Shown: positions 40,071-45,429 of the stretch, in pieces | How the letters are laid out: each line of letters begins with the position of its first letter | Numbering within the stretch: position 1 is the stretch's first letter | IMG/VR virus record: IMGVR_UViG_3300036781_000838 | Span: 31,135-95,134 of that record | DNA from: a virus | Reading direction: 5' to 3' (one strand) | DNA: 64,000 nt | The notes under the pieces: model-generated | What the model was told of the DNA's origin: nothing | Databases searched by the model: none | The model's input: only the letters and a program-made list of their open reading frames with translations | Made by a program: the position numbers and the translations under genes

Positions 40071-40397
40071 TTATGCAACCAAAGTCAGGCGTGAGTTATA
40101 ATACTCTTCCTGGGTTAAAAAATGGAACTCTGAACAGTGCCCAACGGCTACGTCCGTTCTGGTATAGGACTCGAATACCTTTATGAAATCCAAAAAGGAG
40201 GTTTCCTGTTCTTCTTTGAAAATGTCTGAATCCCAAAGGCTTGTATTTCCTTTTTTATCGAGGAAATTGGCGTGTATGCTATTGGTATGTACTGAAAATG
40301 TAAAGAGCATATACCCAATAGGTTTTCCCCAAACATCGCCCTCTAATTTTCTATATCCCATCCTTTGCAGGTCGAGTTCTTTATGGTACATTGTCAT
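40071..40397 (-). CDS. Hypothetical protein
   Basis: ORF track; ATGA overlap with the upstream gene. Confidence 0.55.
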   Translation of the reverse strand: MTMYHKELDLQRMGYRKLEGDVWGKPIGYMLFTFSVHTNSIHANFLDKKGNTSLWDSDIFKEEQETSFLDFIKVFESYTRTDVAVGHCSEFHFLTQEEYYNSRLTLVA

Positions 40398-40843
40398 GAT
40401 TTAAAACAATTTGATTGCATATCACGGGTGTAATATTTGCCGGCGATGTTGCCATTATAGCTTCTTACGGTGAGAACATCGAAGTTTATCATATACTTCA
40501 GTTCCAGGTATCCAAGAAACTTTGGAGAGCAGGAGAGGGCGATGATTTCCCTGGTAAAGTCCTGCTCTCCTTTTTCTTTGACATCTTTTTGTAGATCTGT
40601 GGAGGATGACCAATACGACAACCAGTCCGATTCCTTTCTTACCAGTTGATATGTTTTCTTTCGCTTGTCGGCTGATAACTCATTTTTTCGCAGGGCCTTC
40701 TTTCTACTGGAATAAAAATGCTTTTTGCCAATGTAAATTGAACCAGTCTTCGTATTTGTTATTTTGTAAATAAACCCAAAGAGTGCTTCGGGCTGGGGAA
40801 GATCGTCTAAGGATTCGACCGTCCTAGAGTTGTAGAGCCACAT
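40394..40843 (-). CDS. GIY-YIG family nuclease-like protein
   Basis: GFIYKIT...IYIGKK; Y-W-S-S segment; C-terminal E and YN. Confidence 0.75.
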   Translation of the reverse strand: MWLYNSRTVESLDDLPQPEALFGFIYKITNTKTGSIYIGKKHFYSSRKKALRKNELSADKRKKTYQLVRKESDWLSYWSSSTDLQKDVKEKGEQDFTREIIALSCSPKFLGYLELKYMINFDVLTVRSYNGNIAGKYYTRDMQSNCFKS

Positions 40844-40859: not shown

Positions 40860-41486
40860 CTACAAAACTACAAACTTTTGTTTTTCGACCGTCAAACAGA
40901 AATCAATTAAGTTATCGACATATTGGCGACGTTCGGTCAATGTCTTGAAACTTGGTAGCTTGATCCGATCTCCCACTAATTTCGAAATGTCATCAGAAAA
41001 TATAATATCCCCTTTATGGTCCTCGATTAGTGTTTCAACAATAACCTGGATTGGTCGAAAGGGTTTTGTTCGTATAATTTTAGAGATATAAAATTTGACG
41101 TCGATGTCAGTCCAATCATCATTATTAGGTATGGTAATGATGAAAAGCGGCGAAATTCCCTTTGTTTGGTCATCAAATAATCCTATAAATCCTTTCCCCA
41201 TTAGGTATACTTCACCGCCGTAATTCAGCTTCATTAAGATATGGGCTGTATTAATTATTTCCATCACCTTGTCTTTGTTAAGAGTCCTTTCCCGAAACTG
41301 AGTTGCTTCAGTGAACATTAAAAATCCTTCTTTATGGTATCCTGAAGGTTCCTTATAAATTAATGCAACTTCCTGAGAGGCAGCAGTGAATAAAAGGGCT
41401 GAAGGTTGTGGTGAACTATAGTTATACTGATTTCTTCTTGCGAAGGGGAATTTCGTTAATTGGTCAGAAAAGCGGTAGTCTATCAT
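40860..41486 (-). CDS. Hypothetical protein translationally coupled to the E1 gene
   Basis: ATGA overlap at 41483-41486. Confidence 0.6.
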   Translation of the reverse strand: MIDYRFSDQLTKFPFARRNQYNYSSPQPSALLFTAASQEVALIYKEPSGYHKEGFLMFTEATQFRERTLNKDKVMEIINTAHILMKLNYGGEVYLMGKGFIGLFDDQTKGISPLFIITIPNNDDWTDIDVKFYISKIIRTKPFRPIQVIVETLIEDHKGDIIFSDDISKLVGDRIKLPSFKTLTERRQYVDNLIDFCLTVEKQKFVVL

Positions 41487-42184
41487 AGCATAAGGTTGAG
41501 TGGGGCAATATATTCCCAGAAGTGTGGTACCGCCCGCATTGGAGTATCAGAATTTGCATTTGTAATCCAATTTGTCAGAAATCCAACCATGTGCCCGGCT
41601 ATCATCGCTGCGCAATGGGTAGTTTGCGAGAAGGTACATGGTTGTGGAGGTACTTCATCACCATTAAAGAGATGAGTGGATTCATATTCTTCAATAAATG
41701 CATAATCGTCCCCTGGTATGTTGAATATCTGTAGTAATTCTGCATTTAGGCGACCGTCCTGGAAGAAACAATATTTCCTTTGACTTTCAGGTATAAGCAT
41801 GAGAAATTCGCGCCATTTTCTGAAAGCTAATTTTCTTGCTTCCATATTGTCAAACCCGCATATCATTATATTGCTAACGGAACTATCCTCCTTATACATT
41901 CCGTCGGATTCTACTGTAGCATCCGGCGAGAACTCTTTGATGATTTCAGTCACAGCATCTGTTTTCCTTTTGTTAATATCCTTGGCTCTCACAAGCTGAC
42001 CACTCATATTGTGTTGCTCAAAACGGTCGTGGTCAAATAAATATAGGTTACAACCTATCCTGCTGATAAGTAGGGAAGTCCATGAACCGATTCCTCCTTG
42101 ACCAAGGACCATAATGTCCTTTTTATGAAGAAGGGAGAACCATTCACCTCCTTTTACTCTTCCATACTGTGCTGCTACTTCCAT
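41483..42184 (-). CDS. E1-like ThiF/MoeB family adenylyltransferase
   Basis: LGQGGIGSW, DHDRFEQHNMSGQ, K, FDNMEAR, DGR; candidate thioester Cys in QPCTF (41636-41638). Confidence 0.9.
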   Translation of the reverse strand: MEVAAQYGRVKGGEWFSLLHKKDIMVLGQGGIGSWTSLLISRIGCNLYLFDHDRFEQHNMSGQLVRAKDINKRKTDAVTEIIKEFSPDATVESDGMYKEDSSVSNIMICGFDNMEARKLAFRKWREFLMLIPESQRKYCFFQDGRLNAELLQIFNIPGDDYAFIEEYESTHLFNGDEVPPQPCTFSQTTHCAAMIAGHMVGFLTNWITNANSDTPMRAVPHFWEYIAPLNLML

Positions 42185-42186
42185 TG

Positions 42187-43359
42187 TTATTGTATTTCAA
42201 GATTAAAAATGTCTAATAATTCTGTCGTTAATTCTGGGTAGATATGCGAAAACCCTTTATCAAGCGCCAATGTTACCTCGGTAATTACATCGATCAAGGA
42301 TTCGAGTTTATTATCTTCAGGAAAGATGCTAATATAAAATTCGGAGACACGTACAGCTATCTCTTCAATATGTACATAAAATCCATTATTCTTAAATTGC
42401 TTTTCGGACAACACCTTCATTGTAGCACTCAAGCTTCCTTCGTACAAATGGTCGAGATTCAGCAATTTTACAAGGAATGAATATGTCGATCTACTCAGCG
42501 CGGGTTCTTTTAGGGGTATATTTTTCTGTTTATTTGTGAACGGTCCCTTTTTTCCCTTTGTACCGGGCAAAGTAAACTCATCCCCATCCCAGCCCGACCA
42601 CATATCACCTTGTTTTTTTGAGGATTTGTTGTTTCCTTGTTTTGAGCCGAATTTACTTCTGGAGATTTGTGATTCAGCGGCTTTATTTTTTATAATTTCA
42701 TCAAACCGTTCAGATAGCAGGCTATCAATGATAGGCGGTTTGCTGATCTCGCAGTGATAAAAATGAACGGATGTTTTTTCTACTGTTTCATGCACAGTAC
42801 GGGACTGTTCATTGCCTGAAGAATCATAATATAAGAGTTTCGACTCAATGGCGGAATGCTCTTTGACCCTAAAAGCTACCTTGGCCATCATCTCGTTGGC
42901 ATTGTTTATGATGAGAGAAAGGTAGTAATTATGAAATTCCGAGTTTTTGATTAACTCCTTATCATCAGTATCTGAAAAGAATACACTCATCGTGTGGTGC
43001 GAATGTATGTGCCCGATTTTCATATCCATTAAAGCTGGATTTGCCATAAGAATATTAACAAATTCAGGAGTGTATTCGTAAGTGGTGAAGACATCATTCC
43101 CAATGTCTTGAAGGAATAAGTATTCCGCCGAAATTAGACACTTGTCATCCCCAAACTCCCCCTCAGTGATACTGTAAAACAAGGTTCCTGACCATTCAAT
43201 GTTATGCACTCTTGAGCATAGGTAAAGAATTTGACTCTGTAACTGGTGACTCAACACTATAGACACCTTCTGTTTTAATGCCTTTAAATGCAAAACTGGC
43301 CTTGGTGAGTTCTCTGGAGAGGCGGGAGCAGATATATCGGGTGATCGAAGGGTTTGCAT
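42187..43359 (-). CDS. JAB/JAMM (MPN+) metallopeptidase with C-terminal extension
   Basis: EWSG...GHIHSHHTMSVFFSDTD = E-x(n)-HxH-x7-S-x2-D; start is uncertain (158-nt overlap with the upstream ORF). Confidence 0.88.
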   Translation of the reverse strand: MQTLRSPDISAPASPENSPRPVLHLKALKQKVSIVLSHQLQSQILYLCSRVHNIEWSGTLFYSITEGEFGDDKCLISAEYLFLQDIGNDVFTTYEYTPEFVNILMANPALMDMKIGHIHSHHTMSVFFSDTDDKELIKNSEFHNYYLSLIINNANEMMAKVAFRVKEHSAIESKLLYYDSSGNEQSRTVHETVEKTSVHFYHCEISKPPIIDSLLSERFDEIIKNKAAESQISRSKFGSKQGNNKSSKKQGDMWSGWDGDEFTLPGTKGKKGPFTNKQKNIPLKEPALSRSTYSFLVKLLNLDHLYEGSLSATMKVLSEKQFKNNGFYVHIEEIAVRVSEFYISIFPEDNKLESLIDVITEVTLALDKGFSHIYPELTTELLDIFNLEIQ

Positions 43360-44350
43360 AATATAAGTTTTTATCCTCTATTTCTGGAGGGTTGATAATT
43401 GACAATTTCTTTTTTTCTCCTTTGAAGGTTATCAAGACTTCAGGAGTATATGTAATCGAAGTTTCTGAGGTGATGTTCGTATATTTACCGTCACTGGTTT
43501 TATATGCAAACAAATGGGTCAAAGGCACATTTCTTAATGGGCCATTGGCACTACTCGCCATTCCTTTTAATCGTTTTAAGTATTTGGCCAGCTCCTTTTC
43601 AAAATTATCCGTTGGATCTACATCGATCCTTTTAGATACAACTATTCGTAAATGGGATCTTATGTCATCAATGCTATGGGTATTCAGGAAATGTGTATAT
43701 ATGTAAGACAATTGAGGAAGATATTGGTCATCTAGGGCAACTACTATAGTGTCAGTTCCTATGTTGCTAATATATTCATAAGGTGTGCCTTCAATGGATT
43801 CATACGCCAAATAGCTTTGTATTTGGTAACAAAACATTTCGAAGTTAATCTCATCATATTCCTCTCTTAATGCATTGGTTACATCGTTAATGGGACCCGT
43901 ACCGGTACAGAAGTTGCTGAATTTCGTGCATCGATCATTCAGATGCGAATGAGTATATTCGGAAACCCATTCGTTTTTGCTAAAAGTTGTCCTCATACCT
44001 TGTAAGTCGCCATGCAGTCTAAGGGTTGTTGTTAAATGAAAGGATACATATATGTCTTTAATAACATGAGAGTTTCCTTGTGCATTTGCTATTATCAGCT
44101 CCGGGAAATATAGGATGACTTTATACCGTATTAACTTTTTGACAACACTTGCAAAGTATGCTGAGAATTCCTCCCTATAAGGGGAACCTTGTTGAAGCTG
44201 GCTTACTAGGTTTTCCCGAATGATCTGATTGTTTGCTTCTCCGAATACCCTGTTAAGCGTAAGCTTTATCTTGGTTAAAGATTCCTTATTCCTTTCATCA
44301 ACCAGTTTTACCGTTTCCTCAACCAGGAGGATATTTCTATCTTGGGGCAT
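43202..44350 (-). CDS. E2 (UBC-fold)-like conjugating enzyme, putative
   Basis: YTHSHL...SNFCTGTGP resembles the E2 HPN/HPH...C-xG active site (Cys at 43907-43909); located between the Ubl and JAB genes. Confidence 0.68.
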   Translation of the reverse strand: MPQDRNILLVEETVKLVDERNKESLTKIKLTLNRVFGEANNQIIRENLVSQLQQGSPYREEFSAYFASVVKKLIRYKVILYFPELIIANAQGNSHVIKDIYVSFHLTTTLRLHGDLQGMRTTFSKNEWVSEYTHSHLNDRCTKFSNFCTGTGPINDVTNALREEYDEINFEMFCYQIQSYLAYESIEGTPYEYISNIGTDTIVVALDDQYLPQLSYIYTHFLNTHSIDDIRSHLRIVVSKRIDVDPTDNFEKELAKYLKRLKGMASSANGPLRNVPLTHLFAYKTSDGKYTNITSETSITYTPEVLITFKGEKKKLSIINPPEIEDKNLYYANPSITRYICSRLSRELTKASFAFKGIKTEGVYSVESPVTESNSLPMLKSA

Positions 44351-44404: not shown

Positions 44405-44965
44405 CTAAGAATTCAGACTATTTGCAATCCTGGCAGCTTCATCCACAAGGAAGGTCTGTTCCGGATCATTGTGTCCAGCCTCGTTATTTTCGCTATTTTC
44501 CTCCATATTATCAAGGAGGTTTAATACTGCGTTGGCCTGGTGTTGTGTTTGCTCGCTCCCTTTGATGATTAGATTCAAGCGAACTCGCATTTCTTCTTTA
44601 CTGTTGTCGAATTGGAATTCTTCTACATCATCTTCTTCGTAGTTGAAATTTTCGGCTGTTCCTTGTTCATCACCATTGCCATCATCCCCGTTGTCGTCAT
44701 CCGTATCAGGCCAATTGCCACTATCGACTTTGACGGGATATAAGAACAGGTAAAAATCTTCAACGGGTAAAACAGCAAGTGAGCTGTCGAGGGTTACTTT
44801 GGACCCTCCGACAATCATTCTCATGTTTTTTACGCTAATGCCTTGTGAAGACATTTCCGATACAAGGTCTCCTTTGATAGCGGCTGCTGATTCCAGCACT
44901 CTTTTGTTTTTACCTACGTTGTTGACAACTGTAATTCTTCTTGTCTGAATTGCTACTGTATCCAT
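44405..44965 (-). CDS. Ubiquitin-like (beta-grasp) protein precursor with acidic C-terminal extension
   Basis: Residues 1-83 show a strand-strand-helix-strand...LP...strand pattern ending FLYPVKVDSG (Gly83 at 44717-44719), then about 100 D/E/N-rich residues; first gene of the E2-JAB-E1 string. Confidence 0.68.
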   Translation of the reverse strand: MDTVAIQTRRITVVNNVGKNKRVLESAAAIKGDLVSEMSSQGISVKNMRMIVGGSKVTLDSSLAVLPVEDFYLFLYPVKVDSGNWPDTDDDNGDDGNGDEQGTAENFNYEEDDVEEFQFDNSKEEMRVRLNLIIKGSEQTQHQANAVLNLLDNMEENSENNEAGHNDPEQTFLVDEAARIANSLNS

Positions 44966-44997: not shown

Positions 44998-45429
44998 CTA
45001 TGCGAAAATGTCAATTTCTTCCTCCACGCTGGCTACAGGAGCTGCTGCGGGAGCTACAGTCGGTACAGGTCCAGGTGTAGCTGTGGGTGCTATTGCACGA
45101 GCTGCCCCGGGAGTAGGTTGCCTGTTTGTCGATACTACCGAGTTAATTTGTGCCTGGAACGCCGGCGCCCCTTGTTGTCCTGGCGTATCATCTTCAATTA
45201 TCAGTGTCGCCGCGGGTGCTTCGACATCATCAATGATCTCGATGGTTTTGAACTGTGTTTTTACGCGCTTTACTTTAGCATGCGAAAAGATGGACTTGAG
45301 GTCAGCTGTACTTAGTGCTAAAACCGTTTCTATGCTCATACCTGGTTCAACTGCGTCCACCTCCCAACGTGTGTAACCTGATTTTAGAAGACCAAGAATT
45401 TCGGAAATCTTTACTTGTTTGATAGGCAT
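44998..45429 (-). CDS. Hypothetical protein: small N-terminal domain, P/A/T-rich linker, acidic-aromatic tip
   Basis: Ends in EEEIDIFA; lies between the primase and Ubl genes. Confidence 0.6.
   Translation of the reverse strand: MPIKQVKISEILGLLKSGYTRWEVDAVEPGMSIETVLALSTADLKSIFSHAKVKRVKTQFKTIEIIDDVEAPAATLIIEDDTPGQQGAPAFQAQINSVVSTNRQPTPGAARAIAPTATPGPVPTVAPAAAPVASVEEEIDIFA

Follow-up and report, generated by a model that had tools for sequence, protein, structure and literature searches.

The window, by which the whole stretch of 64,000 nucleotides under analysis is meant, lies in a 6.17-Mb bacterial assembly. Its minus strand carries, in this order, genes for a primase, a 143-aa protein, a ubiquitin-like protein (Ubl), X382, a JAB-type peptidase, a ThiF-type E1, Y208, and a GIY-YIG endonuclease. 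The Ubl gene, its parts and the genes that follow it are given below, each with the evidence used.

44405..44965, minus strand: Ubl precursor gene, 186 aa plus stop (ORF list and sequence)
44717..44965, minus strand: beta-grasp ubiquitin-like domain, residues 1–83, confidently modelled (AF2, Foldseek PDB, BFVD)
44717..44731, minus strand: K79-V-D-S-G83, the C-terminal end of the Ubl (codons read directly; family consensus)
between 44717 and 44716, minus strand: predicted scissile bond G83/N84 (conservation break)
44606..44716, minus strand: acidic, mostly low-confidence linker, residues 84–120 (composition; pLDDT)
44408..44605, minus strand: helical part of the tail, residues 121–186 (AF2; conserved with the 45%-identical relative P0002)
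44411..44464, minus strand: conserved C-terminal amphipathic helix, residues 168–185 (motif [DN]-P-x3-L-x3-A-x2-I-x2-x-L)
43202..44350, minus strand: X382, probably E2-like (UBC/UEV/RWD fold; AF2 pLDDT 78.6; structure search)
42187..43359, minus strand: JAB/JAMM metallopeptidase of 390 aa, predicted to process the precursor (sub-threshold Pfam match to Prok-JAB, E 0.0017)
41483..42184, minus strand: ThiF-type E1 adenylation enzyme, 233 aa (Pfam ThiF, 4.8e-14)
40860..41486, minus strand: Y208, conserved gene downstream (tblastn; same position in L001, L003, L005/L006, and L007)
40394–40843, minus strand: SegE-type GIY-YIG homing endonuclease, directly after the cassette (Pfam, 1.5e-24)

The Ubl protein is divided into two portions of very different composition. 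The codons that follow Gly83, read by hand from the DNA, specify N84-W85, and the linker that begins there (37 aa) holds 16 Asp/Glu and 0 Lys/Arg, for a net charge of −16. Over the full 103-aa tail the net charge amounts to −23, whereas residues 1–83 sum to +2. An AlphaFold2 (AF2) model of the 186-aa protein, computed from a 57-sequence alignment, reaches a mean pLDDT of 83.6 and places strands at residues 9–15, 20–26, 48–52, and 71–77 and a helix at 31–40, all with a pLDDT of 90–97 and in the order beta-beta-alpha-beta...beta. The last strand is followed by a coil (residues 78–83), so that the conserved Gly closes a short flexible end, and the confidence then falls into a trough (pLDDT 53–59, residues 81–100) before three tail helices (122–136, 138–160, and 168–185) are modelled at a pLDDT of 65–88.

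Structure searches with this model return beta-grasp proteins. The top Foldseek matches in the PDB are all of this fold (ubiquitin, SUMO, ISG15, and MoaD), with a TMt of 0.5–0.68 over 74–87 columns and an E-value of about 3e-3, a value that reflects the long extra tail carried by the query. In BFVD, the first six matches come from Flavobacterium phage Fpv3 and the crAss-like phages cr111_1, cr106_1, and cr126_1 and are all uncharacterised (E 1e-7 to 4e-6), and the ubiquitins of giant viruses and baculoviruses rank after these phage homologues. The N-terminal domain is thus, on the strength of the models, a ubiquitin-like beta-grasp domain. Sequence families add little to this assignment: phrog_15560 (‘unknown function’) matches the protein at residues 1–87 only, neither Pfam nor PADLOC provides a family for it (Pfam gives only a sub-threshold DUF4358, on the tail), and ten homologues that carry tails of other kinds have no significant Pfam match. 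Two crAss-like homologues represent further tail variants, since A0A7M1RYT6 from cr126_1 (308 aa) has a bL12 C-terminal domain annotated after the Ubl, and A0A7M1RV78 from cr106_1 is only 92 aa long.

A word-index search retrieved a single relative, a tblastn search of the phage collection with the Ubl returned nothing at 1e-3 even though the cassette is present there (it was reached through the E1 and through annotated regions), and a search for loci with the single Ubl protein found none, while a 9-row alignment used as the query succeeded. An exhaustive profile search collected 760 cluster representatives of the family at E<=1e-3, 182 of them passing E<=1e-10, and the best 151 of the 760 were aligned. 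Among these 151 representatives, Gly83 is invariant (151/151), Ser82 is present in 145 and Pro77 in 143, and Lys is found in 135 at position 79 and in 137 at the position of Asp81, giving the family consensus P-x-K-V-K-S-G before the break. The column entropy is 0.00 bits at the Gly (P1), rises to 3.42 bits at P1' and stays at 3.4–3.9 bits beyond, with Pro never occurring at P1' or P2'. The same contrast is observed among close relatives, to which the Ubl domain is 36–53% identical and the tail 18–40%. With strong conservation up to G83 and an entropy jump directly after it, the boundary read from this alignment lies far beyond chance.

What follows the Gly varies widely in both length and type. 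The tail, of 103 aa in this protein, ranges from 1 to 248 aa in the family, and five of the 151 representatives stop only 1–5 residues past the Gly (SGN twice, SGF, SGNEKK, and SGFKTNA). Likewise, in the viral loci L003, L012, L010/L011, and L013, the stop codon lies a single residue past the Gly (SGI, SGF, SGR, and SGK). These G+1 forms were considered as possible truncated gene calls, an explanation that is ruled out by the position of the stops inside contigs of 12–90 kb, with the downstream enzyme genes intact. A split gene, in which the tail would be encoded separately, was also rejected for L003, L010, L012, and L013, where the small intergenic ORFs between Ubl and X382 do not match the helix profile described below and no tail-like sequence is found within 7 kb. 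In two of these loci, an ORF of ~50 aa (M-A-K-K-K...) starts at the Ubl stop codon in another frame (L010:1527-1685 and L013:4991-5140), likewise with no match to the helix profile; as both loci are closely related, its conservation may mean little.

Among the 146 tails of at least 20 aa, 49 are acidic like that of the window, about 57–65 hold another module with the consensus M-S-Y-K-E-L-R...K-N-Y-T-Q-L-S-T-D-E-L, which is not encoded elsewhere in the window, and seven are Lys-rich. These classes nevertheless appear to converge at their ends. A profile built from the last 34 residues of the acidic tails alone was searched against the 97 non-acidic tails, and it found the extreme C-terminus in 15 of them at iE<=0.01, in 29 at iE<=0.1, and in 48 at iE<=1, all matches falling within 12 residues of the tail end. 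Reversed or shuffled tails gave 0–2 matches, and none at the C-terminus. The terminal helix of the window’s protein reads D-P-E...L...A-A-R-I-A...L and, within the window, is found in the Ubl ORF only. As judged from these profiles, most long tails, across classes, end in one conserved amphipathic helix placed behind a variable middle, and the conservation of this helix implies that the tail is functional rather than junk. The helix probably binds a partner that all members of the family share.

The tail therefore reads, at the level of sequence, as an accessory module open to loss or replacement, and the existence of the G+1 forms argues that it is dispensable for the core system. The acidic composition of the middle portion had led to the proposal that the released polyanion could be a second product, for example a DNA mimic. 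The data on this idea are mixed: the conserved helix speaks for a functional tail, but across the family a DNA-mimic role seems unlikely, since Lys-rich and neutral middles take the place of acidic ones; within the window’s own clade, it is possible. Searches of the protein atlas with the tail return generic helical matches only, and no longer fused forms, such as Ubl-E2, were found in the family, which is weak evidence.

What the initial annotation had read from the DNA is borne out by these data. The position of the ORF, the KVDSG end inside the chain and the long acidic tail agree with the ORF list, the direct reading of the DNA and the charge counts; the compact domain that stops at Gly83 before an abrupt change is matched by the drop in AF2 confidence and the jump in entropy after G83; and the tail does hold an amphipathic helix, at 168–185, recovered in relatives’ tails by the profile search. 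The alignment of homologues that it suggested, intended to reveal whether the SG pair is invariant while the tail varies or is absent, gave precisely this pattern, with the Gly in 151 and the Ser in 145 of 151 sequences, tails of 1–248 aa, and G+1 forms occurring naturally, and thereby supports its core interpretation of a precursor.

The order Ubl-X382-JAB-E1 is preserved in 12 of 15 IMG/VR loci, the other three being cut by contig ends. Two further phages share it, cr111_1 of the Crassvirales and the Flavobacterium phage FpV4, the Ubl homologues of which (...K-I-R-S-G-A... and ...Q-V-K-S-G-G..., respectively) both hold long tails. The E1 has invariant residues G28xGG31xG33, D51, D53, N59, Q63, K74, D112, R117, D143, and C183, among them those that bind the nucleotide and Mg/ATP, is annotated as ‘thiamine biosynthesis protein ThiF’ in phage records, and matches in PADLOC, over the adenylation domain only, the Cap2 E1-E2 (1e-10) and BilD (4.3e-6, over 76 residues). 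The JAB protein retains a complete JAMM signature (E55...H119-x-H121-x7-S129-x2-D132), which is invariant in 10–11 homologues. For X382, H134-S-H136 and C148 are invariant in 18 sequences, and the 50 best matches of a wide VIA-align search are mostly UEV, UBC, and RWD chains, including BubB (9eav_D) and Cap2 (7to3), with a Z of 4.4–6.2, an rmsd of 3.2–5.8 and ~94–154 aligned residues; Foldseek gives RWD at a probability of 0.2–0.4. An E2-type fold is consequently probable for X382 rather than certain, because the Z-scores are middling. Together with the Ubl, X382, JAB, and E1 would make up a complete conjugation-type gene set in a phage. Y208, in turn, gave no family or fold match in searches that included Pfam and the protein atlas.

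The X382 and JAB ORFs overlap by 158 nt in the window (43202–43359) and by 56–170 nt in relatives (L001, L003, L005, L016:3682-3737, and L017:3746-3870). The end of X382 is a low-confidence tail bearing a short conserved D-x-L-P-x-L, and the overlap could be a simple one or could reflect a frameshift fusion.

As for its distribution among bacteria, the Ubl family was found in the window’s own genome alone among 401 searched, with no match in the other 400, all sampled from one and the same phylum. This fits a gene that travels with phages, here probably through a crAss-like prophage.

Taken together, the gene probably encodes an inactive precursor of a phage Ubl modifier, in which JAB would cut between G83 and N84 and the E1 and X382 would then use Ubl(1–83). 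Residues 1–83 would constitute the modifier, and adenylation by the ThiF-type E1 would require its six-residue flexible end, V-K-V-D-S-G, to expose the carboxylate of Gly83. In the precursor, the 103-residue tail would block this carboxylate until the JAMM peptidase, the product of the second gene downstream, severs the G83/N84 bond and sets Ubl(1–83) free. The E1 would then adenylate the freed Gly and pass the Ubl on, probably via Cys183 and subsequently Cys148 of X382. An invariant Gly buried in the middle of the chain, along with a tail that can be swapped, makes it most likely that JAB must act before the phage’s E1 and E2-like enzymes use the Ubl; we infer the cut itself, the enzyme that makes it and conjugation to any target. 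The role of activation switch that the initial annotation gave to the adjacent JAB stands as far as the enzyme is concerned, since its JAMM residues are invariant and its gene keeps its place near the Ubl in 12 of 15 viral loci, whereas the cut by JAB is a predicted step.

Prediction of a complex between JAB and the precursor gave a score of 0.48, compared to 0.12 for the best of three controls, which lends weak support to this pairing. At least 55% of contacts recur between runs, and the partner is modelled at a pLDDT of 58 or more. The mark applied to such predictions is reached by 58 of 80 solved complexes and by 2 of 110 mismatched pairs, and the passes with scores at 0.60 or under comprise 7 of the 80 solved complexes and both passing mismatches. 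Since JAB-ubiquitin complexes are among the solved structures, the pass may reflect likeness only.

Other readings of the locus deserve consideration. As in UBL-UBA shuttle proteins, or in the earlier view of lambda TAPI, the Ubl could be the permanent N-terminal interaction domain of an uncleaved two-domain adaptor. Gly83 would then serve as a conserved hinge leading into the linker, with the helical tail doing the work. This reading draws its plausibility from the tail, whose terminal helix is conserved and whose helical fold is modelled with moderate confidence (pLDDT 65–88). We consider it improbable, however, as natural proteins stop one residue past the Gly and yet keep the whole enzyme cassette. 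Moreover, a hinge would explain neither why a conserved K-x-K-S-G adjoins a 3.4-bit column nor why genes for an E1, an E2-fold protein and a JAMM peptidase with an intact motif accompany the Ubl in strict synteny. A different use of a trimmed Ubl is found among sulfur carriers, where CysO is trimmed by Mec+ and QbsE by QbsD. A ThiS/MoaD/CysO-like precursor, trimmed by JAB and thiocarboxylated via the ThiF-like E1 for a thio-cofactor or a thio-modified nucleic acid, would account for a minimal ThiF/MoeB-type E1 that is named ThiF in phage records and for the presence of MoaD among the fold matches. Nevertheless, Pfam finds no rhodanese, cysteine desulfurase, ThiG/MoaE-type acceptor or PP-loop enzyme among eight neighbouring proteins; the conserved partner has instead a probable E2/UEV/RWD-type fold and an invariant Cys, and the Ubl ends in S-G, not G-G, all of which make a sulfur carrier very improbable.

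It is also conceivable that the cut after Gly83 is made by a host protease or by another phage protease, and that JAB only removes the Ubl from its targets. The JAB enzymes of Bil and CBASS do also reverse conjugation (PMC11601596), and the complex prediction for JAB and the precursor is weak. On the other hand, JAB is the sole peptidase that accompanies the Ubl in every complete locus, and in the precedents of BilC and BubC the JAB enzymes do the processing themselves, so that this division of labour appears the most improbable of the three alternatives. Processing of the precursor by the phage’s own JAB is thus the reading preferred here, and it can be compared with several known systems.

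A close parallel in mechanism is Bil. In BilA, the reactive Gly97 precedes Ala98, and BilC, the JAB of the operon, has been inferred to be needed before adenylation by the E1 (10.1101/2023.09.26.559546). Both systems have a Ubl with a non-terminal reactive Gly and a gene set of Ubl, E2 (in the present family, a probable E2-like protein), JAB, and E1, and the G+1 forms of the present family (SGN, SGF, SGI, SGR, and SGK) look like BilA. However, Bil constitutes a host defence island, while the present system is phage-encoded and has a single beta-grasp domain; its E1 is a 233-aa single adenylation domain instead of an IAD-AAD-CYS protein, and the cap in the window is a structured tail of 103 aa. 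The PADLOC models for Bil and Bub gave no match for the Ubl and none for X382, and for JAB an E-value of 0.02. The system therefore seems to work like Bil, although by sequence it is not a member of it.

Type I Bub offers a precedent for a long tail. Like the protein described here, BubAB holds a long C-terminal extension past a conserved internal Gly, and Edman sequencing has placed the cut made by the BubCD JAB domain directly behind Gly229 (PMC11601596). The piece released by the operon JAB in Bub is itself functional, being the E2, BubB, a protein which is also among the fold matches of X382 (9eav_D). Unlike in Bub, the E2-like protein has a gene of its own in the present cassette, where the place of the extension is taken by interchangeable modules of acidic, basic or helical character. 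Furthermore, Bub uses Ser/Tyr oxyesters, whereas the present cassette keeps an invariant Cys in both the E1 and X382.

Eukaryotic ubiquitin is made from precursors of two kinds, namely fusions to ribosomal proteins and polyubiquitin with a one-residue cap. The family resembles them in that the terminal Gly can be followed by one capping residue or by an entire further polypeptide, both within one family, but its tails are not ribosomal proteins and the processing is predicted to depend on a JAMM enzyme encoded next to the gene. Among phage proteins, TAPI of lambda and T1 also has a Ubl with a conserved Gly ending the beta-grasp, followed by a low-complexity linker and a small C-terminal domain, and its cleavage by a neighbouring JAB (the JAB-NlpC protein K) has been predicted (Iyer, Burroughs and Aravind 2006, PMC1779556). 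Nonetheless, TAPI is part of a tail-assembly module without E1 or E2, whereas the present family belongs to a replication module with an E1 and an E2-like protein, and the linker of TAPI is Gly-rich, in contrast to the acidic linker found here.

The principle of a Ubl capped past its Gly is hence already known from Bil, Bub, and eukaryotic ubiquitin fusions, with the cap removed by the operon JAB in Bil and Bub. What is new is its owner, a replication module of phages of the Crassvirales and their kin, as well as the coexistence, apparent from the alignments, of one-residue caps with several unrelated long tails in one family, where most long tails seem to share the terminal helix. The relatives examined are mostly recorded as ‘uncharacterised’ or ‘hypothetical’, and two have automatic names that do not mention the ubiquitin fold. 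A literature search found no described Ubl system in crAss-like phages, which is not proof of absence.

Experimental work on the conjugation of prokaryotic Ubls has dealt with it as a means by which hosts defend themselves against phages, as exemplified by Bil, CBASS Cap2/Cap3, and Bub, and the present cassette would be the virus’s own version. Its carriers include members of the Crassvirales, the order of dominant human-gut phages (such as cr111_1, the record notes of which refer to crAss001), together with Flavobacterium phages. In practical terms, the precursor status and the predicted cut site define the mature 83-aa species that is needed for activation and conjugation assays, and the same site predicts the remnant that would be left on modified lysines, after trypsin a Ser-Gly for ends of the K/R-S-G type and V-D-S-G for the window’s protein. 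The modular tails, with their common terminal helix, offer a way to study the place and time at which the system becomes active.

In this regard, the tail might be regarded as a swappable docking or cargo module, the terminal helix of which would keep the precursor, before it is cut, bound to a common partner such as an enzyme of the cassette or a component of the replisome, where the cut by JAB would free the active Ubl along with the tail as a second product. This proposal is a tentative one, and rather unlikely in this full form.

The very ends of some tails show a further pattern. A tip of the form N-[LMIF]-x-[LIM]-[FYW]-x-COOH is present in 12 of the 146 tails, compared to 0.19 expected after shuffling, and the tail of the window’s protein, which ends in ...N-S-L-N-S, is without this aromatic tip. 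We take the tip to resemble those by which bacterial clamp-binding proteins and acidic tails of the SSB/T7 type dock, a resemblance that serves as a lead only. The 143-aa protein encoded directly upstream of the Ubl (Z143; 44998–45429, minus strand) ends in an acidic run followed by I-D-I-F-A, and its homologue at L007:6530-6970 ends in F-E-N-L-F-N, which is like the N-L-x-L-F-x tips of the Ubl tails of other phages and may be a shared docking motif.
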